Shown one piece after another: positions 41,494-60,436 of a stretch of DNA of 64,000 nucleotides (positions within the stretch are counted from its first letter, which is position 1; each line of letters opens with the position of its first letter). Below the pieces are notes generated by a model. That model saw nothing but the letters and a program-made list of their open reading frames with translations. It did not search any database and was not told the DNA's origin. The DNA comes from a virus (Duplodnaviria; Caudoviricetes): IMG/VR virus record IMGVR_UViG_3300037067_027616, positions 128,001-192,000 of that record; one strand, given 5' to 3'. The translations under genes and the position numbers were made by a program.

Positions 41494-42470
41494 TGTTCAT
41501 CGGTTTGTACGTGGTTCTTTCTAACTAGTTTTGCCGTACTCCTTGAAAACGCCTCATATCTGAAATCAGAGGCAAGTCTTACCACGTATCCTTCAACAGG
41601 GTCGGGGCTGGCGGCACAATATTTCTCAAAGGATCTATCTACGAACTCCCTCCCCCATACTTCATGATAGAACACGGGTACTGTTTGAAGCCCTAGCAAT
41701 TTAGAATAGGTGGCTGTATCGTGCCAAGAAAGGCACCTGTTAAGGTCATCCCATATCGAGTAAACGAGAAAAAAAGAGGGGAGATTTTTGTAGGCTATGC
41801 TGTGTTCGGCATACAGGTTCTCCCCACAAACACGCCATTTTTTTGGGATATCATGTTTGATTGACCCGTGAAGGGCATGTACCCAATCGCGGCTTGGGTG
41901 CGGTCCGGAGTTTACCGATCGTGCAAATACCTTTTCTTGAGTCATCGTGGTACACTCACCGTCCATCTTCACCGTAGCCACCACTTCCTTGCCGTCAAAC
42001 AAGTTGTCGTCTTTATGCATCCTGTCATCGTTTTGGACATTTGGGGAATACGAAAAATGATACGTGCGGGGGTATTTGATGTTCCATGTGAATGAATCAA
42101 GCACTCCACCATCTTTCAAAGCTATCCGGACGCTGTCCTTCAAGAACAAGGGTCCTGGATAGCGGACGCCTGTAGGTTCCACCACATTTCCCCAGTGGTC
42201 GTATTCGTTCTCCTCATCGAAACCAGGAGGACATACACGTGACTTGATACCCGCTTTTTCCCGGAGCACGGAACACGGAATAACAGTCCGTTCTGCATCG
42301 AGGTGACAACGTTCGCACAAAGTTACTCCGTTTTCGGTGTAATACCCACCATCGGGCCACAAGCTTCTATCCATCAAGTGGTGCACGGCCGTACCGCGCG
42401 CCGGACACCCCACGCAGAGTCCCTGGTCGCGTTTCCTCACAGCTATGTTGAATTCATCCCTTGTTGGCAT
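41430..42470 (-). CDS. HNH domain fused to ATP-dependent RNA ligase
   Basis: RDQGLC..C..HH..N..LC..CH; KYPRTYH, KMDGE, EGYVVR, KLVRKNH. Confidence 0.85.
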   Translation of the reverse strand: MPTRDEFNIAVRKRDQGLCVGCPARGTAVHHLMDRSLWPDGGYYTENGVTLCERCHLDAERTVIPCSVLREKAGIKSRVCPPGFDEENEYDHWGNVVEPTGVRYPGPLFLKDSVRIALKDGGVLDSFTWNIKYPRTYHFSYSPNVQNDDRMHKDDNLFDGKEVVATVKMDGECTTMTQEKVFARSVNSGPHPSRDWVHALHGSIKHDIPKKWRVCGENLYAEHSIAYKNLPSFFLVYSIWDDLNRCLSWHDTATYSKLLGLQTVPVFYHEVWGREFVDRSFEKYCAASPDPVEGYVVRLASDFRYEAFSRSTAKLVRKNHVQTDEHWLSKPVKPNGLARGQACEPS

Positions 42471-45900: not shown

Positions 45901-45985
45901 TGGCGGAGGATGAGAGGGTCGAACTCCCACGACCTTTCAGTCACGTGTGTTCCAGACACGCCACTTACCATTAGTGTAATCCTCC
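45901..45985 (-). tRNA. tRNA-Ser(GGA)
   Basis: Cloverleaf, long V-arm, CCA encoded. Confidence 0.9.
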
Positions 45986-45995
45986 ATTAATTCGG

Positions 45996-46078
45996 CGGCG
46001 GGCAGAGGACTCGAACCCCTACACCCTTTCGGGCGCCTGATCTCGAATCAGGTGCATTACCAATTATGCAAGCCCGCC
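45996..46078 (-). tRNA. tRNA-Ser(CGA)
   Basis: Cloverleaf; followed by CCG, so CCA not encoded. Confidence 0.9.
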
Positions 46079-46329
46079 TTCCAGCATTTTCTTGACCTTG
46101 TTGAGATCCTCTTCAACTTTTGACATGTCATTGGCAACCATGTCAAGTGCATCGATTTCGTTCTCGTTGAAATTTGTGTCAGACTCCACCCGGCTCTCCT
46201 CCACATCAACATATTTGTCTACGAACACCACCAAATTCGAAAAGTCCTCGATGGCACCTTTGAATTTGGATCGCAGTTGGGCCTCGACAAGTAATTTTTC
46301 TATTTCATCTGCCATAGGATCCCACACAA

Positions 46330-46421
46330 TGGTGGAGGGAGCAAGATTTGAACTTGCGGGAGAGTTGCCCCTCCTCTAGTTTTCAAGACTAGCGCGATAA
46401 ACCAGGCTCTGCCATCCCTCC
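46330..46421 (-). tRNA. tRNA-Ser(TGA)
   Basis: Cloverleaf, long V-arm, CCA. Confidence 0.9.
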
Positions 46422-46572
46422 TCATTTATGAATCGTTCTTTGCACCATGCACTCGACACAAAACCGTATGGCTCGTATCCTGTGCAGGATGTCCTCGAGC
46501 AGGCGGTCGGCTTCCTCCGCCTTCTTCGAGGCCTCGATGTCTTTGTTCTTTGGCTGTGTGTCTTCCATGAAG

Positions 46573-46815
46573 TCAACCTCCAGCGCCTTTGGAACTCTTG
46601 GTATTTTTGCCCCACTCCACGTATCCATAACACGCGATTGCCAAGAATACTGCAAATAACACGACATTGTACAATTCATTCTTGTAGTATCCTACAGCCA
46701 CGAGTATCACGTTGGCGGCGATGTAGAACATAAAACCGATGCGGTTCCTGCGCGCGTTGAGGAGCGCCCCAATTACCCCGAGAAGACTTCCGATCCACCC
46801 AAACACATCAGTCAT
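46573..46815 (-). CDS. PnuC-like small membrane protein
   Basis: Three TM segments, C-terminal YGYVEW motif. Confidence 0.6.
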   Translation of the reverse strand: MTDVFGWIGSLLGVIGALLNARRNRIGFMFYIAANVILVAVGYYKNELYNVVLFAVFLAIACYGYVEWGKNTKSSKGAGG

Positions 46816-47054
46816 TTCAACGGCCCCCGAAGATGACCCACAGCCAGCACACCAAGGATATTAGGAACGGGTAAAAAAGTGGGAACGTTGCTTTTTTGCC
46901 TTTCATTGCGTCATTCAGTTGCTCTAACTTTCCCCAATTGGTGCTCGTGTAACATACAAAGAGTAACAACCGAAGTATGAAAATAAGACCGAACAGTATA
47001 CCGAGCGACCAAGATAAAGCGTTCAAAAAGGCCACGACTTCCTCCTTGAATAAT

Positions 47055-47138
47055 TGGTGCGCCGAGAGAGCATCGAACTCACACGGGTTTCCCCACTGGC
47101 TCCTAAGACCAGCGCGTCTGCCATTCCGCCACCGGCGC
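47055..47138 (-). tRNA. tRNA-Leu(TAG)
   Basis: Cloverleaf, CCA. Confidence 0.9.
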
Positions 47139-47480
47139 TCAATCAAATACCCCGGGGTCGAATTTTGAATTCTTGTAACTGTAACATGTCAATATTACTT
47201 TTTCGCATGGGTCATATCGCGGTCCGTATTCATGCACGACCACTATGAGATTGCCATATTTGTAATACACTGCGTCCTTGAGATACTTTATGGTTTGCCT
47301 CAAACTCTTTTTGGGGGACACAGGAATCAAATCCCCGCGTAAATAAGCGTTTATAAGTCGTTGCTTGGTCAACACCTCATTGATTTTATCGTCTATGCGT
47401 GTACGATATTGCTTGATCGCATGTGGGGCGACTATTACAAATTTACGTAGCTTCGACAGTTGACGATAGGTGACCATCAT
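47139..47480 (-). CDS. hypothetical protein
   Basis: ORF overlapping HPr stop; HAIKQY motif. Confidence 0.6.
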   Translation of the reverse strand: MMVTYRQLSKLRKFVIVAPHAIKQYRTRIDDKINEVLTKQRLINAYLRGDLIPVSPKKSLRQTIKYLKDAVYYKYGNLIVVVHEYGPRYDPCEKVILTCYSYKNSKFDPGVFD

Positions 47481-47749
47481 TCCACCATAAAATTCTCGAG
47501 GATGTCAGCTATTTCTTTGTATGCTTTTTCCTCTTCGGGGCCGCGCACCACAAGACTGACTGTTTTTCCTCCGTCCACCGCGAGCGACAGGAGACTCAAG
47601 ATGCTTTTGGCATCCGCCTTCATGCCGTTCTCCGGGTTCTCAATGGTTATTTCAGTGTTGTCGTACTCCTTGGCCCTTTGACAAATGCACAGCGAAGGTC
47701 TTGCGTGTAGTCCTATCTCGCTGCGTAACCTTACCGTTCCCTTTACCAT
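47477..47749 (-). CDS. ptsH: HPr-family phosphocarrier protein
   Basis: GLHARP, DAKSILSLL. Confidence 0.9.
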   Translation of the reverse strand: MVKGTVRLRSEIGLHARPSLCICQRAKEYDNTEITIENPENGMKADAKSILSLLSLAVDGGKTVSLVVRGPEEEKAYKEIADILENFMVE

Positions 47750-47765
47750 TTCAACCTTTCTTCCT

Positions 47766-47841
47766 TGGAGCCGATGAAGGGACTCAAACCCCCGACCCCC
47801 GCATTACAGGTGCGGTGCTCTATCAGCTGAGCTACATCGGC
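47766..47841 (-). tRNA. tRNA-Thr(TGT)
   Basis: Cloverleaf; C33, A19-U56. Confidence 0.85.
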
Positions 47842-47846
47842 TTATG

Positions 47847-48131
47847 TCAATATTCGTAATGTCCACGATCTTGATCACGCTCTTCTCTATCCCGGCGGCT
47901 CTTCCTCTTCTGCGGGAATTTGTCGAGCATCGCCTTCCTGATTGCATCCTTACGTTTCCGGCGTTTCTGCTCACTCGGTTTCTCGTACGAGCGCCTCTTC
48001 TTCAGTTCTGCGAGGATACCTGCGGACTCGGCGACCCTTTTGAACCTCCTGAGCATCCTCTCGATATTCTCCATACCGCCCTTGGTGTCTACTACTCCGT
48101 ACATTTTTGCTCCTTTGAATGTGTCCTTCAA
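47847..48131 (-). CDS. rpsU: ribosomal protein bS21
   Basis: ENIERMLRRFKR...YEKPSEQKRRK. Confidence 0.9.
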   Translation of the reverse strand: MKDTFKGAKMYGVVDTKGGMENIERMLRRFKRVAESAGILAELKKRRSYEKPSEQKRRKRKDAIRKAMLDKFPQKRKSRRDREERDQDRGHYEY

Positions 48132-49042
48132 GCCCTGCGCATCAAATCCGATACGAGGTGCTTTACTACTGGTGGTGGAAAACCGTTTCCTATACCCTCG
48201 AGCATTTTCGTCCTCGAAAGTACATTAATATCATATTCGTCACCGAGTCCTTGCAACCTCGCCGCAAGTCTGGGGCCACACATGTGAAGTTCCCCCGAGG
48301 GCATGACCACAACCCCATAAGGAACCCCTCGTTTGTAGTTGCTGACTACCGTACCAGCCACCACGTCAAAACGTAACGGTGGATGTCTCTTGCACCTTTT
48401 CGGGTCGCGAAACCAATACTTTTTCTCGTTGTAACTCATGGGACGCGTCAAAGGTTGCGTGTCCTTTTCAGGAGAATCGTAGAGATATTCCCGGACAAGG
48501 CTGGGTTTTTCCCAAGGTTCCTCCGGGTATGTCACGTTCCACTGTATCTTTTTAGAGCAGAGCATAACAACACGGCGCCTGTTCTGCGGCACACCATAAT
48601 CATAGCAGTTTATTTCTTGGCAGTCTACTGCGTACCCGCGTGCTTTCAAATCATTTATTATGGTACATAAATAGCTTTTAAACCGCGAAAGCCCAAAGCT
48701 GTTCTCGATAAGTACGTGATCCGGGTTGCACCGATCAATTGCCCTGAAGAAATGCGGGAAGGTGTTGCGTGAATCGTCTTCCCCCTTTGTGCCAAATCTG
48801 TTGGCACCTGGGGAAAAAGCCTTGCAGACGGGACCTCCGCTGAGAAGGTCACATTCAGTTATCTCGTATTTGTCGACATCTGCGCATATAGCTACGGGAC
48901 TGAGGTACATTGGTTGGCTGTTGTAGGCTTGCACAAACTTCGGGTCGATCTCGCAAGCCCCGACTACATTGGCCCCTGCCTGTGTCATACCCCAAGAGGA
49001 TAGTCCTACGCCAGAGAAGATTTCGACTACACGCATGCTCAC
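48128..49042 (-). CDS. C5 cytosine DNA methyltransferase
   Basis: FSGVG, GGPVC, EN, PQNRRR, GNG. Confidence 0.85.
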   Translation of the reverse strand: MSMRVVEIFSGVGLSSWGMTQAGANVVGACEIDPKFVQAYNSQPMYLSPVAICADVDKYEITECDLLSGGPVCKAFSPGANRFGTKGEDDSRNTFPHFFRAIDRCNPDHVLIENSFGLSRFKSYLCTIINDLKARGYAVDCQEINCYDYGVPQNRRRVVMLCSKKIQWNVTYPEEPWEKPSLVREYLYDSPEKDTQPLTRPMSYNEKKYWFRDPKRCKRHPPLRFDVVAGTVVSNYKRGVPYGVVVMPSGELHMCGPRLAARLQGLGDEYDINVLSRTKMLEGIGNGFPPPVVKHLVSDLMRRA

Positions 49043-49051
49043 CTGTCCATT

Positions 49052-49139
49052 TGGTGCCCGAACCCGGACTTGAACCGGGACGAGGGTTTACCCCCAAGAG
49101 GGTTTAAGCCTCTTGTGTCTTCCATTCCACCACTCGGGC
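49052..49139 (-). tRNA. tRNA-Leu(TAA)
   Basis: Cloverleaf, CCA. Confidence 0.9.
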
Positions 49140-49157
49140 AAAACCTGAAACAAAATA

Positions 49158-49772
49158 CTACTTGCCGGCGACGATGTAAACCCCGGGGGTGCCGTATCCT
49201 TCATAATTCTCGGCCTCCCGGATGCTGTACCCTATCCCCCGCATTTCCTCTACGAGGGTCCTTTTTGAGTATCCGCACGTGTGGAATTGCCCCGGGTCCA
49301 CCGGTGGATCCTCAACATCGCCGCATTCCATGTCGGCTTGGTAACCGAAAAGTGTGTATAAAAACCATCGACGCGAATTCGCGTTCAAGTCCCCACGAAG
49401 AAGGACTCCCATTATCATGTCTATGTCCGGCATGCTGAGGAGCAGGGTGCCCCCAGGCTTAAGAACACGGTGCCAATCTTTCAATGCCAACTTTGCTCTT
49501 CGTATCGGGAGATGCTCCAATGAATGAGCCGAAAAAAGTCCGTCTGCCGTGTTGGGTTTCATCGGTAGCTTGTAGATGTCAGCCTTCAACACTGATGGGA
49601 GCCGTGTATATCGATCGATGTTCACAAACCCTTGCAGAATACGCTTTCCGGAGCCAAGATTTAGGTACACCCCCGGGACATCCACCGCCCTTTTAAACAT
49701 GTCAGCCTCAATCGATTTGAGTCTTTCTCGGGCGTCCACATAGGACTTTGGCAAGTTAAAGGGGGTGCCCAT
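49158..49772 (-). CDS. class I SAM-dependent methyltransferase
   Basis: LNLGSG, HSLEH, RVLKPGG. Confidence 0.85.
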   Translation of the reverse strand: MGTPFNLPKSYVDARERLKSIEADMFKRAVDVPGVYLNLGSGKRILQGFVNIDRYTRLPSVLKADIYKLPMKPNTADGLFSAHSLEHLPIRRAKLALKDWHRVLKPGGTLLLSMPDIDMIMGVLLRGDLNANSRRWFLYTLFGYQADMECGDVEDPPVDPGQFHTCGYSKRTLVEEMRGIGYSIREAENYEGYGTPGVYIVAGK

Positions 49773-49778
49773 ATTGTG

Positions 49779-49807
49779 AATATACTAACTCGGTGTCCTT
49801 TTGTAAA
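49779..49807 (-). promoter_or_regulatory. possible internal sigma70 promoter (leaderless mRNA)
   Basis: TTTACA-17-TATATT just upstream of ATG. Confidence 0.5.
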
Positions 49808-49882
49808 CATCGATCCACCAATAAGTTGTTTATATCCCCTTCCGTTATGCAGGCGGCACACCAGTAACCTGAGGCACGCATC

Positions 49883-50257
49883 ATGGAAGAACAAGAATTA
49901 AAAGAAGTAATCCAAAAGCAACAGGTCGAATCCTGTGATGAGAGGTATGTCCTTGAAAAGGTATATTGGCAACGCACGGTCAAAATGCTTGTCATGATCG
50001 TGTCACTGCTGATCACATTATCAGGAGGCATAATCGCTTGGGGTTTCAAGACTTCCGCAGAGGTTACAAACAACACCCAAGGCAGACGGGAAATCGAACG
50101 CAGGATTAGTGACATCGAATCCTTTTACAGAATTGCCAACGAAAACTACAGCAATGTTGCCAAAAACCAATTGGAAGCCCTACAATACTCACAGAGATTG
50201 AGCAGAAAATTGGACATCCTCATAGAACGGGCCGGGGCAAAATATTTGGAAGAGTAG
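49883..50257 (+). CDS. single-TM coiled-coil membrane protein
   Basis: Hydrophobic segment; GAGG RBS; opposite strand to neighbours. Confidence 0.65.
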   Translation: MEEQELKEVIQKQQVESCDERYVLEKVYWQRTVKMLVMIVSLLITLSGGIIAWGFKTSAEVTNNTQGRREIERRISDIESFYRIANENYSNVAKNQLEALQYSQRLSRKLDILIERAGAKYLEE

Positions 50258-50260
50258 GTG

Positions 50261-50336
50261 TGGTGGAGCCTGAGAGAGTCGAACTCTCGGTCTCCTGCGT
50301 GCAAGGCAGGCGCTTTTCCAATTAAGCTAAGGCCCC
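50261..50336 (-). tRNA. tRNA-Ala(TGC)
   Basis: Cloverleaf, G3-U70, CCA. Confidence 0.92.
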
Positions 50337-50344
50337 ACAATGTT

Positions 50345-50421
50345 TGGAGCCCACGAGTGGATTCAAACCACCGACTTTTTCCTTACCAAGGAAATACTCA
50401 TATCAACTGAGTTACGTGGGC
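50345..50421 (-). tRNA. tRNA-Thr(GGT)
   Basis: Cloverleaf; A19-U56. Confidence 0.85.
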
Positions 50422-50728
50422 TTATCTACCGTATTTGATGCTTAACGATGCCGCTCCGGCTACGCACATCAAAAAAAGATCGTATGTCCTGATCGCATAT
50501 GTGGGTATCTTGCGTAGTTTGTGAATCGTATTTTTAAGTTGTTCTTCGTCCAACAGCAGCGGAACTATCGTCTTGTGAACTCCGTCATACACCATAAAAT
50601 GCACAAAACCTGGATACATAGTTCCTTCAGAAGCAACCGTCCAGGCTCCTTCCGTGTGTGCATACTCATACACAATTAATGATTCCTTTGTCTCCATGTG
50701 TGTGGAGAAAAATGAATGTGTTATTCGG

Positions 50729-50804
50729 TGGCAGGGTGAGAGGGCATCGAACCCCCAGCCTCAGGTTTTGGAGACCTGCGCTCTGCCGATTGAGCTATCA
50801 CCCT
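50729..50804 (-). tRNA. tRNA-Trp(CCA)
   Basis: Cloverleaf, CCA. Confidence 0.92.
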
Positions 50805-52212
50805 AAAAGAGATATGAACTGATCGTAATTTTGTTTTGATCCGCCCACGCCCTCATAATTCGTTGCTCTTGAGGAGTAGGCGATCTGTTGCTCATACCAC
50901 GTGCTTGACAGATCTGCCCTTTGGTGAGTTCCATGGTGACCATCCTCCACGAGCCTTCCTTGTCAAACAACCTCAACGACCATATCGAGGATCTTCCCGA
51001 TGAGCAGGCCCATGTGTATGATGCCACGCAATGTTTCATGGCCCGGCCTTCATCGTACAGTTCCTTCGAGGTCAAAAGTTCCTTGATAATCCAAACCCTG
51101 CGGTTCTGCCCAGTTCCTTCCTCGAGCCGGAAGTCAGACACCACGCTGTGACTCCAAGAGGACGCACCTTTTTTAGCCTTTCCAAGTTCTTTGTGCCACC
51201 GTTCAACTTGATCCATCAAGGTATTGGCGTTCCGGCCGTTCATGCTGAAGTTTGGTTGTTCGGGATTTTGAGTAACGATGTTGCCTCGGTCGTCATATTC
51301 ATTGCGTATCTCATATTTAATGTGGCATATGTAATCGATGATCGGACCATATTGATTCGAGTCGAGCATGGGATTTGCAATGAGAAATTTTATAAACGAC
51401 TGCCGGAACTCATCATCAAACCGTTGCATGCGAGTGCCCCGCAAACGGGATGATATCCTCGTGTCCCCGCCGAGGGCAACGACCTGGCCATGTAAGAGGG
51501 CATCTATTACAGAGAAATACCCGGGGGCTTCAAGGAAATGGTGCGCCATCTTTTTCGTCAGCGGGAACGGAAGATTTCTCGCCGTCCGTATGTTGTTGCC
51601 GTTCCCTATGTGTATGTACCACTCTTGATGGAGTTGTTCATCAGCCTCCCAAACGCTGTCCATGAAGGTTGGTATGGGATACTTCGTGAAAAGGTGCCGT
51701 AACAACGATGATATCTGCCGTTGCAAGCTGTGGCTCTTCACCACCCACGTGGTGGGATCCTTTATCCAATACGGGGACCACCTCGCGATTTTTATGAGCA
51801 TCCTGATCGCTTGGGTGTCTTTAAGGATCTTTGACCGGTCATTACCTTTTCCAGACACGGAGTCGACAAGTTTGATTAAAGATCTTTTTGTGTCTTCGTC
51901 TAAAACAGACCTGTGATCAAACAGCGCGTTAGAAACAGAGGAAAATTCACACGATTTAGTTGGGTCTTGCAGGACCCTGTGAATGGCTTCCCGTTCGTTT
52001 CGAGGGGTGTGACTGCTTTTTTCCAAAGCTTTGATAGCCTTGTCTGCTTTGTATATCGAGGCCTCCCGTGCAATTTGCCAAGGGGTTTTATACCACGTGG
52101 CCTCAAACCCTGCTTCCTGGCACCACTCAAGGTACTTCGGCATCTCCAAACCGAAGCTACGAAGTATGACTTGTTCGGCGCTCTCCTTGTTGTACTTTTT
52201 CTGTACGGCCAT
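50803..52212 (-). CDS. PcfJ-domain protein
   Basis: EGRAMKHCVASY...SIWSLR...QARG..NR. Confidence 0.85.
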   Translation of the reverse strand: MAVQKKYNKESAEQVILRSFGLEMPKYLEWCQEAGFEATWYKTPWQIAREASIYKADKAIKALEKSSHTPRNEREAIHRVLQDPTKSCEFSSVSNALFDHRSVLDEDTKRSLIKLVDSVSGKGNDRSKILKDTQAIRMLIKIARWSPYWIKDPTTWVVKSHSLQRQISSLLRHLFTKYPIPTFMDSVWEADEQLHQEWYIHIGNGNNIRTARNLPFPLTKKMAHHFLEAPGYFSVIDALLHGQVVALGGDTRISSRLRGTRMQRFDDEFRQSFIKFLIANPMLDSNQYGPIIDYICHIKYEIRNEYDDRGNIVTQNPEQPNFSMNGRNANTLMDQVERWHKELGKAKKGASSWSHSVVSDFRLEEGTGQNRRVWIIKELLTSKELYDEGRAMKHCVASYTWACSSGRSSIWSLRLFDKEGSWRMVTMELTKGQICQARGMSNRSPTPQEQRIMRAWADQNKITISSYLF

Positions 52213-52223
52213 AAGGTCACCTT

Positions 52224-53111
52224 CTACAGGATGACGATTCTGACATCAGGTACTCCCGCAGGATCCGCCTCTATGACTGCGGCGATTAGTTTGGAGGTTT
52301 CCACCCACGGGTGTCTCATGAGGTAGTCTTCTCTCATGGTTTCCATCCTCGAGGGGTCGATGACGGCGGCGGACAGATACTGTCCAGGTTGCACGACAAC
52401 GGTTCTGCCGATGGTGGCTGTACGTATTTTTGTCCTCCAGGGGCATTCATGTATGTGTCCGGACAATACCATGTACGGCTGCTTTTCCTCAATCCATTCT
52501 TTGATGGCGTTTGACCCGACCTCGCGGCCATCTATGCACACATCCAACCCGACCAATTTGGGAGGGGAATGTATGGCTATTATCTCGTTCGGCTTCGCCT
52601 TTCTCGACCGCAAATCATCTTCGATGGTGCCTTTTTTTCGGAAGTATTCTTTCACATCTATTATGGGTACCAACCCGTGTTCGGTGTCTTCTGTGGGTAT
52701 CTGTATATACGATTCAGGTTTCCACCCCTTGTGGTCATACTTGCAGGCGGTCTTCAACCCGAACGGATAGTCAGGCACGTACGGGTATCCAGTAAACGTA
52801 AACCCCTCGAAATCGATGGGTTTCTCATCGATGAGATCCCCGCATCTTTCCCGGTAGAGGGGTTTGCGTGTCCACAAGTCATCATTGCCAAACATGGCCA
52901 TGAACTTTATGTCCTTATCTCCGCACTTCTTGATGAACCCCGGCAAGAATTTCTTTATGAATTCCTTCTGCCGCGGTTGCATGGAGTAACCTTTTGGGAG
53001 TATGTCGGCTCCCACGTGAAGGAGTTTTGCTCCTTCAGTTACGCATAAATCGAGAGCCTTTGCGTACTTCCCCTCATCCCCATGTAAATCTGTGGCATAA
53101 ACGAACTTCAT
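52224..53111 (-). CDS. calcineurin-like metallophosphoesterase
   Basis: TDLHG, GAD, GNDD, HSPP, SGHIHE. Confidence 0.85.
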   Translation of the reverse strand: MKFVYATDLHGDEGKYAKALDLCVTEGAKLLHVGADILPKGYSMQPRQKEFIKKFLPGFIKKCGDKDIKFMAMFGNDDLWTRKPLYRERCGDLIDEKPIDFEGFTFTGYPYVPDYPFGLKTACKYDHKGWKPESYIQIPTEDTEHGLVPIIDVKEYFRKKGTIEDDLRSRKAKPNEIIAIHSPPKLVGLDVCIDGREVGSNAIKEWIEEKQPYMVLSGHIHECPWRTKIRTATIGRTVVVQPGQYLSAAVIDPSRMETMREDYLMRHPWVETSKLIAAVIEADPAGVPDVRIVIL

Positions 53112-53137
53112 TCGTCACCCCATTCAAAAGGTAAGAT

Positions 53138-53166
53138 AATATACTATTTTGAATATCTTTTGTCAC
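53138..53166 (-). promoter_or_regulatory. possible internal sigma70 promoter
   Basis: GTGACA-17-TATATT. Confidence 0.5.
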
Positions 53167-53175
53167 CTTGAATTT

Positions 53176-53254
53176 TGGTAGGATCGGTGAGATTTGAACT
53201 CACGACCAGCTGCTTATAAGGCAGCTGCTCATCACCAGGCTGAGCTACGATCCT
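53176..53254 (-). tRNA. tRNA-Ile(TAT)
   Basis: Cloverleaf with UAU anticodon, CCA. Confidence 0.88.
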
Positions 53255-53303
53255 ACAAACCGGAGTGTGCTGACAATGAAGCATGTCCATACTTTGATAA
53301 TTG

Positions 53304-53376
53304 TGGAGCTGAGGGGGATCGAACCCCTGGCCTCGACATTGCGAACGTCGCGCTCTCCCAGCTGAGCTACAGCCCC
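53304..53376 (-). tRNA. tRNA-Ala(CGC)
   Basis: Cloverleaf, G3-U70; CCA not encoded (CAA). Confidence 0.9.
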
Positions 53377-53397
53377 GTATTAGATTCTTAAAATTTG

Positions 53398-53694
53398 TCA
53401 TGCGGCCCAAGGACGTATATCAGAAAGATCTTCCTGCCAAGGTCTGCAGTATCTTTTCTCCTGCATAGTCCTTTTGTCTTTGTTCCAACGACTTCTACGT
53501 GGGTTTCCGCAGGAAGAACAAGAACACAATTTGGTCGTGTTCCTTCTCAAGTAACCCCAACGTTCGAGAAGTTTCTTCTTCTGTTCTTCGGTACACCATG
53601 TCCACCGGTATGAACTGGTTTCACCGCGAGCACGTGCGTCACCTTTCCACTTTCCTACGAGGAAGCGTTCCCGGCGATTGCGGGGATGAGGCAT
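53398..53694 (-). CDS. small basic protein (CSCxxCGNPRR)
   Basis: AAGGAGG RBS; Arg/Lys-rich. Confidence 0.75.
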   Translation of the reverse strand: MPHPRNRRERFLVGKWKGDARARGETSSYRWTWCTEEQKKKLLERWGYLRRNTTKLCSCSSCGNPRRSRWNKDKRTMQEKRYCRPWQEDLSDIRPWAA

Positions 53695-53797
53695 CAGTAA
53701 CCTCCTTATGAGTTAAATACTGATTGCCATCATTTTACCCCTTTGTTGGAAAAGTGATTACACTATCATCTTTTAAAAATGAGTAGATGATTAATTT

Positions 53798-53873
53798 TGG
53801 TGGAGCTGGCGAGGGTCGAACTCACTACCTCCTCGTAGCCAACGAGGCGCTCTCCCAATTGAGCTACAGCCCC
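53798..53873 (-). tRNA. tRNA-Ala(GGC)
   Basis: Cloverleaf; U37; CCA. Confidence 0.9.
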
Positions 53874-53902
53874 ACATTGATAATATACTATCAAAAACAT
53901 TG

Positions 53903-54014
53903 AAATGGACTGCGGTCTCCGGTTCGCCTATGGGAGCCACCTGTGCTTGATAACGGGAGAGGTGGGCGCCCACGTCACCGCCATTCCGGTTCACACGATA
54001 CCCGCAGTCCATTT
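53903..54014 (-). ncRNA. unidentified ~105-nt structured RNA
   Basis: Terminal stem aaatggactgcgg/ccgcagtccattt, internal stem and possible pseudoknot. Confidence 0.6.
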
Positions 54015-54020
54015 TTGTTT

Positions 54021-54098
54021 TGGAGCCAACGACTGGACTCGAACCAGCAACCCCCGCATTACGAATGCGGTGCTCTACCAAATTGAAGCTACGTTGGC
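54021..54098 (-). tRNA. tRNA-Thr(CGT)
   Basis: Cloverleaf, CCA. Confidence 0.92.
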
Positions 54099-54099
54099 A

Positions 54100-54176
54100 T
54101 GGTGGGCGACAGAGGGCTCGAACCTCTGATCTCCGCGATGTGGACGCGGCGCCTTAGCCGACTGGGCCAGTCGCCC
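54100..54176 (-). tRNA. tRNA-Val(CAC)
   Basis: Cloverleaf; C33; CCA. Confidence 0.88.
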
Positions 54177-54186
54177 CTGAAGATTG

Positions 54187-54275
54187 TGGTGGGAGGTGAT
54201 GGAGTCGAACCACCCGAGCCCGTTAAAGGCAACAGCTCTACAGGCTGTCCCGCTACCCCTACGGTATAACCTCCC
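54187..54275 (-). tRNA. tRNA-Tyr(GTA)
   Basis: Cloverleaf, long V-arm, CCA. Confidence 0.9.
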
Positions 54276-54286
54276 ATAAATAAAAA

Positions 54287-54492
54287 GGGGACACTCCCGT
54301 AATTGGACTTCTGTTCTATGGCCACATTTGACTGAGCCCGAGACCCGTCCATTGTAGCCCTGCTCACCGGCTAGGACTGTTTTCGGTTGCTACCGAGGAA
54401 GTGCGGGCGACCTTGCGATCTCCTTCCACGAGCAGTGTAGGTCCAATTTCCTCACCGGACTGACGTCCGGCGCGTGACCTCGGAGTGTCCCC
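54287..54492 (-). ncRNA. rnpB: minimal RNase P-like RNA
   Basis: P1, P2 and P3 helices; GAGGAA and ACAGAA flanking a complementary P4 (AAUUGGAC/GUCCAAUU). Confidence 0.75.
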
Positions 54493-54497
54493 GGGAT

Positions 54498-54583
54498 TGG
54501 TGCTCAAGGAGAGACTTGAACTCTCACGAAGTTTCCCTCGGTGGGTTTTGAGTCCACTGGGTCTGCCATTCCCCCACTTGAGC
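54498..54583 (-). tRNA. tRNA-Leu(CAA)
   Basis: Cloverleaf, CCA. Confidence 0.9.
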
Positions 54584-54627
54584 ATGTTCATAATTTCACG
54601 AATGTTCACGTAAACGTGAACAAAAAT

Positions 54628-54711
54628 TGGTGCGGCTGACTGGATTTGAACCAGCAAGGCGTTTGCCATAACGTTCTTAGCGTTACGTGTATGCCATTCC
54701 ACCACAGCCGC
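54628..54711 (-). tRNA. tRNA-Leu(AAG)
   Basis: Cloverleaf with A34, CCA. Confidence 0.88.
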
Positions 54712-54718
54712 ATATTTA

Positions 54719-54874
54719 TAAGATCCGCGTCCGAGTCGATGGGGCGTCTTCTTTCGAAGACTGATTAACCATCAGTTGCTCCACCCTGGAGCATACTCCC
54801 CATAAGTGGGGAGTCGTGGGATCGAACCACGCATACACGGAATGTACGCCCTCTCATGGAGGACGCGGATCTTA
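54719..54874 (-). ncRNA. circularly permuted tRNA-like / Y-RNA-like element 1 (loop GTT)
   Basis: Order T-arm, closed acceptor, D-arm, anticodon arm, inside a 14-bp terminal stem. Confidence 0.8.
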
Positions 54875-54882
54875 ATTTCAGT

Positions 54883-55042
54883 AGGACACCGTCCGAGTCG
54901 ATGGAGCGTCATCGTCAGATGATGGTTTAGAGACCATTGCGTTTACCATTTCGCCATCCCGGCATTGGTGCCGGGGCCAGGATTTGAACCTGGAGTTGCC
55001 TTTCGGCTTAAATGTACGCTTCGTCCTGGAGGACGGTGTCCT
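54883..55042 (-). ncRNA. circularly permuted tRNA-like / Y-RNA-like element 2 (loop CTA; ACCA in acceptor loop)
   Basis: Same architecture and conserved flanks. Confidence 0.8.
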
Positions 55043-55048
55043 TTTTCT

Positions 55049-55134
55049 TGGTGCGGATGAAAGGATTTGAACCTTCATGGGTGTTAGCCCACTAGCGCCT
55101 GAAACTAGCGTGTCTGCCTTTCCACCACATCCGC
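55049..55134 (-). tRNA. tRNA-Leu(CAG)
   Basis: Cloverleaf, CCA. Confidence 0.9.
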
Positions 55135-55144
55135 GCATCTTAAT

Positions 55145-55293
55145 GGGATCCCCGCCTGAGTCGACGGAGCAAGTGACGCATTTTGACTGTTTTACTGACA
55201 GTTGCCTTACCATTTGGCTATTCCCCCATATAAGGGGGAATCAGGAGTTGAACCTGAAGAGTGTATGCTTTCATCATGGAAGGCGAGGATCCC
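55145..55293 (-). ncRNA. circularly permuted tRNA-like / Y-RNA-like element 3 (loop GTA)
   Basis: Same architecture and conserved flanks. Confidence 0.8.
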
Positions 55294-55302
55294 TAACTTG
55301 TT

Positions 55303-55380
55303 TGGGGTGACCGGCGAGACTCGAACTCGTAACCGCTGGATTCACAATCCAGTGCTCTGACCAATTGAGCTACGGCCACC
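55303..55380 (-). tRNA. tRNA-His(GTG)
   Basis: Cloverleaf, G-1:C73, CCA. Confidence 0.92.
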
Positions 55381-55392
55381 ATAATTCTCCTT

Positions 55393-55466
55393 TGGAGCTG
55401 GCGCCCAGATTTGAACTGAGGATGAAGGTTTTGCGGACCTTTGCCTTTCCACTTGGCTACGCCAGC
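55393..55466 (-). tRNA. tRNA-Cys(GCA)
   Basis: Cloverleaf, U73, C33, CCA. Confidence 0.9.
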
Positions 55467-55623
55467 ATAAGGTAACAAGGAGGAGGGAACGGGCCGGGGA
55501 GCACCGCCCCCACCCCTTGATGCTATTGACATGACTGCGTCCCGCATCAGCGGGCGCATTCATCATGTGCTTCATGCAAACAATCCGTATTTTCAATGAA
55601 CCAGAAACCACAAACAACTCCGT

Positions 55624-55668
55624 AAAAACTTAAAGGCCCCCGTCCGAATCTCTCCGGGCGGGGGCCTT
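55624..55668 (-). terminator. attenuator A terminator
   Basis: AAGGCCCCCGCCCGGA-GAGA-TTCGGACGGGGGCCTT followed by TAAGTTTTT; 5' arm can alternatively pair with 55700-55714. Confidence 0.85.
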
Positions 55669-55690
55669 CTGGTTTTCGCTATGGGCTTGT

Positions 55691-55813
55691 TCAGCCCTTC
55701 AGAAGTCCCCCGCCGTAACTATCCCACGTGAGGTGCAAATACGACAGTCGGCATGCGGCTATCGCTTGCACGTTTGTGGATGATCCGGTTAGTAAGGACT
55801 CTCTGCGTTTCAT
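55691..55813 (-). CDS. leader peptide A (MKRRESLLTGSSTNVQAIAACRLSYLHLTWDSYGGGLLKG)
   Basis: CAGGAG RBS after promoter; codons match all 20 downstream tRNAs. Confidence 0.85.
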   Translation of the reverse strand: MKRRESLLTGSSTNVQAIAACRLSYLHLTWDSYGGGLLKG

Positions 55814-55835
55814 TTGAAAACTCCTGATGGCTCCA

Positions 55836-55864
55836 AATATACCACACAAAAATGGTTTTGTCAA
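55836..55864 (-). promoter_or_regulatory. sigma70 promoter of tRNA array A
   Basis: TTGACA-17-TATATT. Confidence 0.85.
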
Positions 55865-56094
55865 CCTGTTTCTTCCAAAGGCCTTTGGGACAGCGGGAAC
55901 AGCCTCTCATCCACCTGCTTTACGAGGCTCCAAAGTGATGGACACTCCGGCCCATCACCGTAGGTGCTTATGTACTGCCGGATGTACGCACGGGCGTTTT
56001 CAAGTTGCTCGCGGGTCATGCACCCTGTGGTCGTGGACACCGCCTTGGTGAACGCTGTTTCCTTCTCGCTCAACTGCTCGGTGACATCGTCCAT
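55861..56094 (-). CDS. hypothetical protein
   Basis: AAGGAG RBS. Confidence 0.6.
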   Translation of the reverse strand: MDDVTEQLSEKETAFTKAVSTTTGCMTREQLENARAYIRQYISTYGDGPECPSLWSLVKQVDERLFPLSQRPLEETG

Positions 56095-56104
56095 AGGGTC
56101 TCCT

Positions 56105-56557
56105 TTACCAGGTGACTACGAACGGCCCGAAATGGAAACCTTTGCACCATTTACAGGCGTACCCATCTCCTTTGAAAGGCACCGGCCGCGTGACAAGGAA
56201 AAGGCTGAAACGCCAGTCGAAAGGCACGATCTGCAGGCCGATGTCATCGACTTTGTCATACAGCTTCCACCACCATTTCTTTTCGCGCTCCGTGCGCTCC
56301 GCCTCGTGCTTTTCGTACTCCGGGTCAGGCTCATACACTTTTTCCTCATCCGCCTCAAGCCCGAACACTACTTTCAATACGTCATCCCGCTCTTCATCCG
56401 GAAAATCAAAACAAATACCCGCGCTGTCATCATCACCTTTTTTCAGCAATTTCCATATGCAACAACCGACACCGTCCGGGTAGCGTATTTTCTCACCCCG
56501 ATACTCGTTTGATCTCACCATGGTCGTCCCCCTTTTGTATCGGGATAAACTAATCAA
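56105..56557 (-). CDS. hypothetical protein
   Basis: ORF; start probably at MVRS (56521). Confidence 0.65.
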   Translation of the reverse strand: MISLSRYKRGTTMVRSNEYRGEKIRYPDGVGCCIWKLLKKGDDDSAGICFDFPDEERDDVLKVVFGLEADEEKVYEPDPEYEKHEAERTEREKKWWWKLYDKVDDIGLQIVPFDWRFSLFLVTRPVPFKGDGYACKWCKGFHFGPFVVTW

Positions 56558-56561
56558 GACA

Positions 56562-57224
56562 TTATTGCGAGGGACTATAGATTCCTTTGTCCACTATGAA
56601 AGCGAGAACCATACTCGAGAGTCCTGCTTTCAGTATCCCCGGCACGGGGGTGGTCCTGTCCTTCCACGTATGCAATGCCTCGCGTGCTTTCGTGGATGAC
56701 ATGTCGGGTGTGGCCAGGCCCTCCAGATACCTGTGACCACCGGTGGTGTACCATGCCCCGGGGATGTGAACGTATCCCGGCCGTGGCACAACGATAAACG
56801 ATGCGAAGATCCGCAGTTCCTCAAAGTGCTTCCACCTGCCAAAATCGAGGGCATTGTCCAAGCCTATGACGAATTTGAAGGTCACATCTTCGTAGTCGCC
56901 GGCGAGGTTCATGGCCGTCTTCATGGTGCTGCCGTCATCCCAACAGGACCACCGTTTGGCGACTTCAAACTCGAAGTCGCTGACGATTATGCGCTTCTCT
57001 CCTTCAGGCACGGCGAGTGTACACAATTTCACCCGTTCGGAGAAGTCTGTCATGACCTTGCCGAAACAATGATCGATGCACGGCATCAGCCATACCTCAT
57101 CCACCTTGAGTGTCGGGTTGTTGAGTATCCCCAAGGCAACATCGATGTGTCCCGTGGTCGGCGGGTCGAAAGATCCCCCGAACACAGCCACCACCTTGGT
57201 CGGTTTTTTATCCGTGACGGTCAT
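56562..57224 (-). CDS. nadD: nicotinate/nicotinamide mononucleotide adenylyltransferase
   Basis: FGGSFDPPTTGH, IGLDN, W, MSST. Confidence 0.85.
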   Translation of the reverse strand: MTVTDKKPTKVVAVFGGSFDPPTTGHIDVALGILNNPTLKVDEVWLMPCIDHCFGKVMTDFSERVKLCTLAVPEGEKRIIVSDFEFEVAKRWSCWDDGSTMKTAMNLAGDYEDVTFKFVIGLDNALDFGRWKHFEELRIFASFIVVPRPGYVHIPGAWYTTGGHRYLEGLATPDMSSTKAREALHTWKDRTTPVPGILKAGLSSMVLAFIVDKGIYSPSQ

Positions 57225-58067
57225 TCACTCTCCTCAAAGTGGTGGATATTGTAGATTGTGAAGTCGAAAACCGTGTGGTTAAAAAGGGCAAACCGCACGA
57301 AGAATTGAGGATTGTGATCCCCTTTGAACCAACTGAAGTTTACATCAGCGTTTATTACGGTAAGTCCGTCTTTGAAGGAACGGTATTGATAGAACACGCA
57401 CAAATCCATGGCGTAGTTTTTGCCAAGTTTTATACTGAATCCTGTCATGATTGTTACTCCTTATCTCCTTTGAAGAAGCCCATCTTTCTCTTCTTCGCTG
57501 GACGCCATTCCTTGAGGAAGCTTACGAATCTCACTATGGTCTCGAAGGCGATAATCACGGAAACAACAATGTTCAACGCCGTCACGAAAACATTTAGGGC
57601 GTTACCCATCCGTATACCTTGTCGACTGCCAGAAAACGACTTGGTCATAGATCTCCTGTGGTCACCACAGGAATATACCAAACTTAACGGCAAAATTACT
57701 TAAAATTTTAGCGGCACCGTGTTATTTGACACGGATTCGTAGAGATGTTTGGCACGCAGATATGCTTCACGGGATACGGGCTTGGGATTGCCAAGGCTCT
57801 CGATGAACCTCTTGGCATCCCGTCCCGTAAGGGTGGGTGTGGGTTTTGGTAGGGTTTCCAACACCTTTTTGAGTTCAAGGTTCACAGGGGTACTCCGGTA
57901 GGTTCCTTGTGGTCATGGACGCGCTGTAGCTTCACTACAGTCTCCTTGGGAAGAGAGGTGGTGTCCAGATACCCTTGGGCTATTTGACGTGCCTGGAGGT
58001 TGTCTAGGGCCTCGTAGGGGATTTTAATGACCAATTGGTATTGGTATAGTTCGAGTTTGTCGGGCAT
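57221..58067 (-). other. four small hypothetical ORFs
   Basis: Tightly packed ORFs 57221-57448, 57454-57649, 57700-57885, 57882-58067. Confidence 0.5.
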
Positions 58068-58084
58068 GTGGACACCTTTCAAAA

Positions 58085-58177
58085 TGGCGGAGGGTGAAGG
58101 ATTTGAACCTTCGGTAGAGCTTTTGGCCCTACAGACGTTTAGCAAACGCCCGCTTTAGACCTCTCAGCCAACCCTCC
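58085..58177 (-). tRNA. tRNA-Ser(GCT)
   Basis: Cloverleaf, long V-arm, CCA. Confidence 0.92.
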
Positions 58178-58180
58178 GTT

Positions 58181-58269
58181 TGGTAGGTCCGGGTGGAATT
58201 GAACCACCGTTTACCTTTCGGCCCCTTGCGTATCAGACAAGTGCTCTAACCGGGCTGAGCTACGGACCT
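58181..58269 (-). tRNA. tRNA-Ile(GAT) with atypical long variable arm
   Basis: Cloverleaf; V-arm GCC-GAAA-GGT. Confidence 0.85.
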
Positions 58270-58276
58270 GCATATA

Positions 58277-58369
58277 TGGTAGCGGGGGCAAGATTCGAAC
58301 TTGCGACCTCCGTTAGGAAGTTCTGGCTTATGAGGCCAGTGACTTAGACCTGCTCTAGTCTACCCCGCA
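58277..58369 (-). tRNA. tRNA-Met(CAT), initiator-like, long variable arm
   Basis: U1xU72 mismatch, GCGGGG acceptor, V-arm CTTCC-TAAC-GGAGG. Confidence 0.8.
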
Positions 58370-58375
58370 ATGTAT

Positions 58376-58747
58376 TCATCTCAACTCTATTTTTGCCCCG
58401 ACCTCCTCGAACCTCGTTTTGAGAGCCTCGGCCTCCGCTTTCGCGAGTCCGTCCTTTATCACCGCTCCTGGCACCGTGTTCTTGCCGGCGTCCATCAAAC
58501 TTGCTCCGGTCACCTCACGGAGTATCTTGATGACTTGGATGCGTTTTTCTCCGACCTCTGACAATACTACCGAGAACTCTGTCTGTTCCTCGACCACCGG
58601 CGCCGTGTTTACCTGTGGCACCATCGGTGTAATCACATCCGAAGCCTTCACCCCAAATTTTTCTTCAAGCGCCCGGGTGAGTTCGACAAGTTCCATCACG
58701 GTCATCGACCCGAAGGCTTCAAGCAGCTGCTCGTTTGTATAAGACAT
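58376..58747 (-). CDS. rplL: ribosomal protein bL12 (L7/L12)
   Basis: MTVMELVELTRALEEKFGV...EEQTEFSVVL...IQVIK; start MSYTN after CAGGAG RBS. Confidence 0.93.
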   Translation of the reverse strand: MSYTNEQLLEAFGSMTVMELVELTRALEEKFGVKASDVITPMVPQVNTAPVVEEQTEFSVVLSEVGEKRIQVIKILREVTGASLMDAGKNTVPGAVIKDGLAKAEAEALKTRFEEVGAKIELR

Positions 58748-58771
58748 GTCTATCTCCTGTCTTTGAATGTC

Positions 58772-58850
58772 TGGTACCGGAAGCCGGGGTCGAACCGGCG
58801 ACAGACCTGCCGTATGAGAGCAGCGCTCTACCACGCTGAGCTATTCCGGT
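58772..58850 (-). tRNA. tRNA-CAT (elongator Met or Ile2)
   Basis: Cloverleaf, CCA. Confidence 0.88.
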
Positions 58851-58857
58851 ATAACTT

Positions 58858-59226
58858 TTACTGCAAAACTTTCAGCTTGTATTTCTTCACCAATCCTTCT
58901 ATTTCTTTTTGATCCGAGTTTATCCACAAGAAATGCTCCGGACTCGTCATCGTCCTGAAACCTGTTTCCAAGTACCATTTCCAATTTTCGAAGCCCCTCC
59001 GATGGATGAACACACAAAGAGATCCAGGTAACAGCTTCATTACATCCTCAAAAGACATTTGAACAGTTTGTCTTTGATATGACTTTTTGCAATCTAACGT
59101 ATCCACCCACCAATGAAAAGATTTTTCCTTTGCCTCACGAAGAAGACTTTCCTGTCTTTTCAAAGAAAGCCTCTGAATATCGTAAAAAACATCAGGACTG
59201 TGGATCATTTTCTCCGTGCTTTCCAC
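58858..59226 (-). CDS. hypothetical protein
   Basis: ORF in operon. Confidence 0.6.
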   Translation of the reverse strand: MESTEKMIHSPDVFYDIQRLSLKRQESLLREAKEKSFHWWVDTLDCKKSYQRQTVQMSFEDVMKLLPGSLCVFIHRRGFENWKWYLETGFRTMTSPEHFLWINSDQKEIEGLVKKYKLKVLQ

Positions 59227-59462
59227 AACGGGTCAGGATCGTATGACTCCATCACCCCGTTTCTCCAATAATAACTTGTCCAAGGTTCCCATTTCCACCG
59301 ATAATCGCAGATATCCCAAGGATTGAAATATCTGCGGTACGCATTACCGTTTGGAACATCTTCCGTGTTTCTGACGATACGGTTGGCGTACCTCTTCATC
59401 CAACGCTTGCGTGCGGTACCATACCCATCGACAGTCCACGGCTCCCTGTAGGAACGTGACAT
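59205..59462 (-). CDS. small basic protein (MSRSY...ANRIVR...WDICDY)
   Basis: AAGGAG RBS; Arg/Trp-rich. Confidence 0.7.
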   Translation of the reverse strand: MSRSYREPWTVDGYGTARKRWMKRYANRIVRNTEDVPNGNAYRRYFNPWDICDYRWKWEPWTSYYWRNGVMESYDPDPLWKARRK

Positions 59463-59527
59463 GCTCCAGCTCCTTTGTTAAGGTAACTAATGCATGTGTT
59501 CCCCCTTTTCTTTTGTTTGACGTGTGT

Positions 59528-59743
59528 TCATGCCGCTTCTACCATTTCCTCACGGTACTTCCTGATGTACCGCATAAGATAAATAGCTTTGTCATCACGT
59601 AGGAAAGTGGCATTGCCCACATCGCTGATCGGTACCGGGAACAGAAAACCTGAGTCCGTTTTGTACCACAGTTCATTGTCCCTGTAGTACTGGAAGTGGG
59701 CTTTCTGCTCCTTCACCAGGTCAATCAGCTTCGGCGTGGACAC
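59528..59743 (-). CDS. hypothetical protein
   Basis: GTG start with RBS; FPVPISDVGNATF motif. Confidence 0.7.
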   Translation of the reverse strand: MSTPKLIDLVKEQKAHFQYYRDNELWYKTDSGFLFPVPISDVGNATFLRDDKAIYLMRYIRKYREEMVEAA

Positions 59744-59763
59744 CTGACACCTTCCTTTCTATT

Positions 59764-59841
59764 TGGCGGGGGTGACGAGGCTCGAACTCGCGAATCTCGA
59801 CCGTGACAGGGTCGCGTGCTAACCAGCTGCACCACACCCCC
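59764..59841 (-). tRNA. tRNA-Asp(GTC)
   Basis: Cloverleaf, G73, CCA. Confidence 0.92.
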
Positions 59842-60018
59842 GTATTTTACTTGTCCTCAACTACATCGAACCAATCTCCTGCGATCGTGTAGCAACTATG
59901 ATCCTCTTCGCGTTCCTTTGATATCTTCCTGCATTTCTCGCACTCACCCTCTGCGGTCGTGTGCACGCAGATCACTTCCTCGTACAGAGGATCCCAATTC
60001 ACGAATACCTTTGCCATG

Positions 60019-60336
60019 TTATGCTACTTCCTGCTTAAGGATATTCTCTTCAATGTACTTCTTTACCATCCTTGGTGTAACTGATATATTGCCGTACTCA
60101 GCGCAACCATAACACTCGGCACAATGCTCTTCTGTCACACCACAACGCTCTGGAGACAACTTGAAATACTCCAACGGCACTCGGTAGAACTTCTTTGTCG
60201 GAGAGTATATGCCGATTGTTCCTTTGACTCCATTTATTAGGTTGAGTAATCCTTGGAGTCCATTCACTACCCCAACTTTCCGAGTCGACCACACCCAAGC
60301 CTCTCCATTGATGTGCACTTTTCTCGGGGAACTCAT
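60019..60336 (-). CDS. hypothetical protein
   Basis: GGGAG RBS. Confidence 0.6.
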   Translation of the reverse strand: MSSPRKVHINGEAWVWSTRKVGVVNGLQGLLNLINGVKGTIGIYSPTKKFYRVPLEYFKLSPERCGVTEEHCAECYGCAEYGNISVTPRMVKKYIEENILKQEVA

Positions 60337-60359
60337 AGTGTGTCACTCCCTCTCAAATT

Positions 60360-60436
60360 TGGTGGTCCCGAACGGATTTGAACCGCTGACGCCCAGGTCT
60401 TCGGCCTGGCGCTCTACCGGGCTGAGCTACAGGACC
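60360..60436 (-). tRNA. tRNA-Phe(GAA)
   Basis: Cloverleaf; C33, G37; CCA. Confidence 0.9.

Follow-up and report, generated by a model that had tools for sequence, protein, structure and literature searches.

A 206-nucleotide RNase P-like RNA in a phage tRNA array and the inherited loss of the bulged U from its P4 helix

Can an RNase P RNA dispense with the bulged U of its P4 helix? Only two ribozymes are universal, RNase P RNA among them, and this U (U69 in E. coli) is treated as an invariant part of the RNase P active site. An earlier note on the DNA studied here, made from the letters of the sequence, proposed that a phage encodes a minimal RNase P-like RNA of ~206 nt with a perfect 8-bp P4 helix lacking the bulge, and offered two readings of it, an active mini-ribozyme maturing the neighboring tRNA array or an inactive mimic that binds RnpA or tRNA. 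The locus raises the questions of whether this element is an RNase P RNA at all, whether the missing bulge is real, and what such an RNA might still do. According to PMC3488217, the bulged U is universal and coordinates M1, the catalytic metal.

The DNA analyzed (the window) is a stretch of 64,000 nt, bases 128001-192000 of a 466,729-bp IMG/VR virus record that is estimated to be 98% complete. The element occupies positions 54287-54492 on the minus strand, and its 206 nt are numbered so that RNA position n corresponds to window position 54493-n. At gathering thresholds no RNase P model of Rfam clan CL00002 matched in the window, where tRNAs were the sole Rfam matches. In the E-value mode of cmscan, the archaeal RNase P model RF00373 matched 54288-54491 over its full length (model positions 1-288 of 288) with 54.8 bits and an E-value of 2.8e-14, and this was the only site in the 466,729-bp genome at which the model was significant; a second, canonical RNase P RNA copy was not found in the phage genome by the same search. 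The score lies below the RF00373 gathering score of 84 because the specificity domain (S-domain) is replaced by a single 35-nt hairpin, 29 nt of the RNA standing against 117 model positions in this region of the alignment, and the RNA also falls below every other Rfam RNase P gathering threshold. RF00010 and RF02357, searched over the phage genome, gave no match. Three relatives described below (L179, L131 and L139) each matched RF00373 end to end on their own, with 60.6, 51.3 and 46.8 bits, respectively, and the minimum free energy z-score of the 206-nt RNA is -3.96. The identification proposed in the earlier note, for which a search with the Rfam RNase P models had been suggested as a check, was thus borne out by one of the three models, below its gathering score but far beyond what chance would give. 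Judged from sequence, the element is a phage-encoded RNase P RNA cut down to the catalytic domain, that is, P1-P6, P15-P17, CR-I, CR-IV and CR-V.

The fold can be followed from the 5' end, all features lying on the minus strand. P1 is formed by 11 bp between GGGGACACUCC at 54482-54492 and the strand at 54287-54297 (RNA 1-11/196-206), and P2 by 6 bp between GGUCAC at 54474-54479 and GUGGCC at 54320-54325 (RNA 14-19/168-173). P3 is a hairpin of 8 bp closed by a GUCA loop at 54453-54472 (RNA 21-28/33-40). CR-I, read directly as GAGGAAA, and the P4 5' strand AAUUGGAC (54441-54448) together span 54441-54453; the P4 3' strand GUCCAAUU lies far downstream at 54301-54308 (P4, RNA 45-52/185-192), so that the long-range P4 between CR-I and CR-V, pseudoknotted with P2, is present in this RNA. 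P5 pairs CUAC at 54437-54440 with GUAG at 54390-54393 (RNA 53-56/100-103), and the P6 pseudoknot pairs CUGCUC at 54430-54435 with GAGCAG in the P17 loop at 54360-54365 (6 bp, RNA 58-63/128-133). What remains of the S-domain is a two-stem hairpin that contains an internal loop and is capped by a GCAA tetraloop, 35 nt at 54395-54429 (RNA 64-98); the CR-II/CR-III specificity domain, which reads the elbow formed by the T and D loops of tRNA, is absent. The 3-nt linker J5/15, CAA at 54387-54389, is aligned to the CAA of the Rfam consensus and occupies the place of A248/A249 (E. coli numbering). It is followed by the P15-P16-P17 arm at 54338-54386 (P15, RNA 107-110/152-155; P16, 116-119/143-146; P17, 120-124/134-138), in which J15/16 is AAACA and J16/15 is GGGUC (54342-54346). 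The GCAAC-CGAAA stretch corresponds to J5/15 plus P15. CR-IV (AGUCAAAUG, containing the AAAUG motif), the P2 3' strand and CR-V (AUAGAACAGAA, which carries ACAGAA) fill 54309-54337 according to the RF00373 alignment, and the RNA lacks P18. All helices and motifs listed in the earlier note were found at the positions given for them, with P3 extended from its inner 6 bp to 8 bp, and the severe reduction of the specificity domain was confirmed; P5, the 6-bp P6 pseudoknot and the P15-P16-P17 arm with J16/15 GGGUC are added here.

Neither the element nor the surrounding 17 kb matched any of 50,697 phage records by blastn, and two other family members used as BLAST queries did not match these records either; a third matched two published but unannotated genomes of uncultured phages of the Al-Shayeb type, LR745206 (634,780 bp) and LR756501 (735,411 bp). 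The members in these two genomes were confirmed, at 40 and 45 bits, by R1, a covariance model built from the window RNA sequence alone. The route to the other relatives led through the neighboring metallophosphoesterase gene, which is widely represented by homologues on contigs as long as 474 kb; the same phosphoesterase found no related loci in IMG/VR. Full-length R1 matches of 80-153 bits were obtained at four phosphoesterase-linked loci, from which a DNA pattern for CR-IV/CR-V was derived and scanned over metagenomes. R1 matched at E < 1e-3 in 41 of the 120 metagenome loci listed, among at least 120 loci, with 24-208 bits. In all, at least about 45 homologues of ~160-275 nt were recovered, nearly all on metagenome contigs and most within same-strand tRNA arrays. 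Of the 120 viral loci given by a first DNA pattern, which demanded G after ACAGAA, 100 were searched and R1 matched in none; a stricter pattern gave five matches in viral contigs, which we judged to be chance. No cellular copy was found when the pattern was applied to one genome per species (185,579 prokaryote species; 112 loci, with 0 of the 100 searched matching R1), a search bounded by the CR-IV/CR-V pattern and by the single-sequence model R1.

The periphery of the RNA varies within the family. One or two extra P18-like hairpins follow P15 in L146 (6442-6684) and L130 (1928-2177), and L131 (7289-7549) carries a 56-nt insertion in the hairpin that remains of the S-domain, while the window RNA and L139 represent the stripped forms. 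In the member from LR745206 (L379, 2955-3173) the core motifs have diverged, GAGAAA standing for GAGGAA and GCAAAA for ACAGAA, and the bulged U is kept.

We aligned 21 sequences to R1 and counted pairs over 10 helices and 59 pairs. Standard pairs filled 91.5% of the cells, compared with 35-40% when the partners were slid by 1-3 columns; both sides had changed at 48/59 pairs, the covariation score was 0.69 against 0.07-0.13 in the slid controls, and none of 500 shuffles reached any of the observed measures. Since the alignment was fitted to the nested helices, these values favor them; P6 is free of that fit and, though absent from the search model, was paired in 91.9% of its cells with both-side changes at 4/6 pairs, appearing for example as CUGCU/AGCAG, CCGCU/AGCGG, UAGCU/AGCUA and AAACC/GGUUU. 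Among the other helices, both-side changes were seen at 11/11 pairs of P1, 7/8 of P3, 4/6 of P2 and 3/4 of P5, the last two being 100% paired. Conservation of CR-IV and CR-V among the metagenome matches is partly imposed by the scan pattern. The GGGU of J16/15 is kept in most homologues though it lies outside that pattern, and GCAAC is also kept in most of them. Covariation, the absence of which the earlier note had named as evidence against its proposal, is therefore strong, and by this comparison the structure is under selection.

We then compared P4 itself, taking its 5' strand to follow GAGGA and its 3' strand to be the 8 nt behind ACAGAA. In the window RNA, AAUUGGAC and GUCCAAUU form eight perfect Watson-Crick pairs, in which U48 (54445), the counterpart of the universal bulged U, pairs with A189 (54304); the continuous-helix model fits 8/8 and the bulged-U model 5/8. 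Registers bulging U47 or U48 were tried and rejected, since A189 then has no partner and a G is set against an A. Each of the 31 family members examined forms P4, and all of them have U as the fourth nucleotide after GAGGA. The canonical form, 3 bp, a bulged U at position 4 and 5 bp, fits 8/8 in 26 of these 31, and a regular-expression survey of all pattern-bearing loci counted 59 canonical P4s. The bulged U is thus the family norm, and the unbulged state is therefore a derived minority state.

The continuous 8-bp P4 was found only in the window RNA and in L179 among the 31 members examined, that is, in two robust sequences that both come from assemblies. L179 (contig Ga0172365_10021539, from a different metagenome) is the nearest relative, with 208 bits to R1 and 83.7% identity, and its P4, AAUUAGGC/GCCUAAUU, also fits the continuous model 8/8 without a bulge, from which we infer that the missing bulge described in the earlier note is real and inherited. 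Inside P4 the two RNAs differ by two compensatory pair changes (GGAC/GUCC versus AGGC/GCCU), indicating that the unbulged P4 has been inherited and maintained and is not an assembly slip. Outside P4 they differ by 5 compensatory changes, 6 one-sided changes that keep the pair and 1 disruptive change, and GAGGAAA, GCAAC, GGGU and AUAGAACAGAA are kept in both. The simplest origin of the unbulged helix would be the loss of one U from AAU-U-UGGAC opposite GUCCA-AUU, UUU becoming UU opposite AA. A scan of IMG/VR with a pattern specific to this AAUU (unbulged) subclade found no further members. A second departure from the canonical form is shared by L189 and L152, whose P4 is AGCUAGGA/UCCAGGCU with the conserved U in a U-G/A-A 2x2 loop, and a possible third, weaker one is seen in L161 (AAUUAUGA/UCAUGGGU). 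The L189 element (1525-1734) lies among 21 closely packed tRNAs on a contig of 4.4 kb.

The RNA resembles several known RNase P RNAs and coincides with none of them. Like bacterial type A (E. coli M1 RNA, rnpB; RF00010), it has P1-P5, the P6 pseudoknot to the P17 loop, a P15-P16 internal loop with GGU on its 3' side, the 3-nt CAA J5/15, and CR-I, CR-IV and CR-V, and the tRNAs around it have an encoded CCA as in many bacteria. Unlike type A, it is about half the size, has neither the P7-P14 S-domain with its CR-II/CR-III elbow reader nor P18, is encoded by a phage within a tRNA array, and has a U-A pair in place of the P4 bulge. The curated model that scores best and aligns end to end is that of archaeal type A (RF00373), whereas the phage genome encodes no Pop5 or Rpp30 and its tRNA-His gene encodes G-1, a bacterial trait. 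Archaeal type T RNA of the Thermoproteaceae (RF02357; PMC3579882) is likewise a natural RNA of ~200 nt in which the catalytic domain is kept and most of the S-domain is gone. The marks of type T are a P2 of 3 bp, a shortened P15 and a J5/15 of 2 nt (PMC3579882), whereas the phage RNA has a 6-bp P2 and a 3-nt J5/15 and is not matched by RF02357. As the defining traits of type T are not shared, the loss of the S-domain looks independent of type T, and convergent. A functional precedent is provided by engineered E. coli C-domain constructs, in which the S-domain is gone and the C-domain alone cleaves pre-tRNA with reduced efficiency (PMC5839562); those are laboratory truncations, whereas the phage RNA is a natural, conserved gene. 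The other S-domain-less RNAs of large phages belong to the same family by R1 and also lie in tRNA arrays, and the window RNA and L179 stand apart from most of them by the continuous P4.

By ARAGORN, the window has 26 tRNA genes, which occupy 45901-60436 on the minus strand and are the presumed substrates; 24 of them have an encoded CCA. The whole genome holds 49 tRNAs and a tmRNA, two minus-strand arrays accounting for 47 of the tRNAs. The RNA begins 5 nt after the end of tRNA-Leu(CAA) (54498-54583, minus strand, with encoded CCA), and tRNA-Tyr(GUA) (54187-54275, minus strand) starts 11 nt after it. Leu(CAA), RNA, Tyr, Val and Thr follow one another in this order in the window, L130, L131, L146 and L179, and same-strand tRNA genes flank the RNA at most loci, sometimes abutting within 2 nt (L183). 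The nearest promoter-like site, matching the sigma-70 consensus at 11/12 positions (TTGACA, a 17-nt spacer, TATATT and an upstream TG; consensus match only), lies upstream of this array block at 55836-55864 on the minus strand. Because no promoter-like site was found between it and the RNA, and no minus-strand terminator-like site before 53544, co-transcription of the RNA with the tRNAs would be the simplest reading.

Several other features were noted in this genome and its relatives. A 14-bp GC-rich hairpin lies at 55633-55668 (minus strand) just downstream of the extended -10 promoter at the head of the array block. The spacer between tRNA-Ala(GGC) and tRNA-Thr(CGU) at 53874-54020 (minus strand) has a predicted fold of ~110 nt with a 13-bp closing stem (minimum free energy -51.1 kcal/mol, z-score -2.45) and no Rfam match. 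The tRNA-His gene (55303-55379, minus strand) encodes G-1 opposite C73, the bacterial arrangement, in which RNase P must cut one position upstream. The tmRNA is encoded outside the window (G000:C1 422973-423321, plus strand) and has the tag AEDYSYAMAEAA. One of the 49 tRNAs has a CUA anticodon and is possibly an amber suppressor; L203 also has a CUA tRNA. Genes for a CCA-adding enzyme (PolyA_pol head plus HD, 36606-38396), a polynucleotide kinase (40537-41493) and an RNA ligase (41430-42470) lie on the minus strand at a distance of a few kb from the arrays and make up a tRNA maturation and repair set. In L130 a Cas12f1/TnpB-like fragment and a Y1 transposase gene (2688-3113 and 9699-10094) sit in the tRNA array next to the RNase P RNA.

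How could such an RNA work? It would be transcribed within the polycistronic tRNA precursor and released by the enzymes that trim the 3' end of tRNA-Leu and the 5' end of tRNA-Tyr, the cut at the latter freeing its own 3' end. RnpA (PF00825) had no match at E <= 10 in the six-frame translated phage genome, and family searches found no Pop5 or Rpp30 homologues in it; the likely partner would therefore be a host protein, most likely RnpA. The resulting ribonucleoprotein would cleave the 5' leaders of the phage's 49 tRNA precursors. Since the elbow-reading S-domain is absent, the acceptor stem, the CCA and the leader would have to suffice for recognition; in type A RNase P, a GGU loop pairs with the 3' RCCA of bacterial pre-tRNAs, and the GGGU of J16/15, which we take to be the counterpart of that loop and the presumed 3'-CCA binder, could read the acceptor stem and the encoded 3' CCA instead of the tRNA elbow. 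With the loss of a single nucleotide in this lineage, the U of P4 that is otherwise bulged and binds metal would have become part of a U-A pair, and the ribozyme is expected to be weaker or to depend differently on metal ions and still to work.

The cost of such a change can be estimated from cellular enzymes. In T. maritima, O4 of the bulged U52 contacts metal M1, and U52C lowers kcat/KM ~13-fold; deletion of the bulged U costs an archaeal holoenzyme 13-fold at 100 mM Mg2+; overall, mutation or deletion costs ~13- to 100-fold, and the authors call the U 'not irreplaceable' (PMC3488217). As these losses leave activity, and as the core nucleotides are kept and the changes between the two unbulged RNAs are compensatory, we lean toward continued selection on the RNA and, probably, continued catalysis, and we rank first, as the reading with a somewhat better than even chance, a weakened but working ribozyme that borrows host RnpA. 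A U enclosed in an uninterrupted helix may be worse than the point mutants tested so far, which counts against this reading, and the stricter claim, that an RNase P ribozyme has dispensed with the universal P4 bulged U and yet cleaves pre-tRNA, is one that we hold tentatively, as possible and somewhat short of probable.

For the same reason of residual activity (PMC3488217), an inactive decoy takes the second place and is unlikely. It would keep the RNase P core fold without cleaving and would titrate host RnpA or hold the acceptor and CCA ends of pre-tRNAs, thereby modulating tRNA maturation in the host or in the phage. This would agree with the pairing of the universal metal-binding U and with a fold that is still selected, as a binding decoy would need; moreover, the bulge is kept in 26 of 31 members, so that the family is normally constrained to it and the unbulged lineage may have changed its function. 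The genome has no second, canonical copy, and the phage may rely on host RNase P for cleavage in any case. On the other hand, both unbulged RNAs keep the single-stranded core of GAGGAAA, ACAGAA and the CAA linker, not all of which a decoy would need, loss of the U lowers activity in the tested enzymes and does not abolish it, and the position in the array is the same as in the canonical relatives. That shared slot, with the same neighbors, also speaks against a change of target, by which the ribozyme would act on other substrates in the array such as tRNA-like spacer RNAs, on the tmRNA precursor or on its own flanks, and by which these would tolerate or favor the altered P4. The transcript does contain several structured spacers that are not tRNAs and the genome has a tmRNA, and nothing specific points to them as targets, making this idea quite improbable.

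Two simpler accounts do not fit the comparison of the two unbulged RNAs. If the loss of the bulge had disabled the gene, as its rarity in the family might suggest, the RNA should be drifting; since the two RNAs split, however, 7 compensatory changes (2 of them in P4) and 6 pair-preserving ones have accumulated against 1 disruptive change, and the conserved joints are intact, so that decay is very improbable. Slightly more improbable still is an assembly or sequencing artefact in which a U was dropped from a UUU run. One restored U would indeed give a perfect canonical P4, AAU-U-UGGAC/GUCCA-AUU, but L179, on an independent metagenome contig, likewise has two U there, with a different distal sequence, and a 3-nt homopolymer is not error-prone in short-read data. 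The weakened but working ribozyme remains our preferred reading.

No account of a virus-encoded RNase P RNA turned up in a full-text literature search, which was not exhaustive, nor is one mentioned in a 2024 review of RNase P, and no model of Rfam 15 reaches its threshold for this RNA. What is new here, on the comparative evidence, is the inherited and compensated loss of the P4 bulged U. The unbulged lineage amounts to a natural experiment on the active site, for which the canonical relatives in the same genomic slot are a control at hand, and an RNA of 206 nt, easily transcribed, makes it testable whether the bulged U serves metal placement or only rate. The half-sized RNA itself, being encoded by a virus, shows that large phages carry a putative catalyst of tRNA maturation in addition to tRNAs, a CCA-adding enzyme and enzymes of RNA repair. 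Should the RNA prove inactive, it would be the first RNase P decoy found in nature. If it cleaves, the backbone alone, or a U-A pair that opens transiently, would suffice to place the catalytic metal, and, together with L189 and L152, this phage family would be tolerating a remodeling of the active site that has never been seen tolerated in cellular life.
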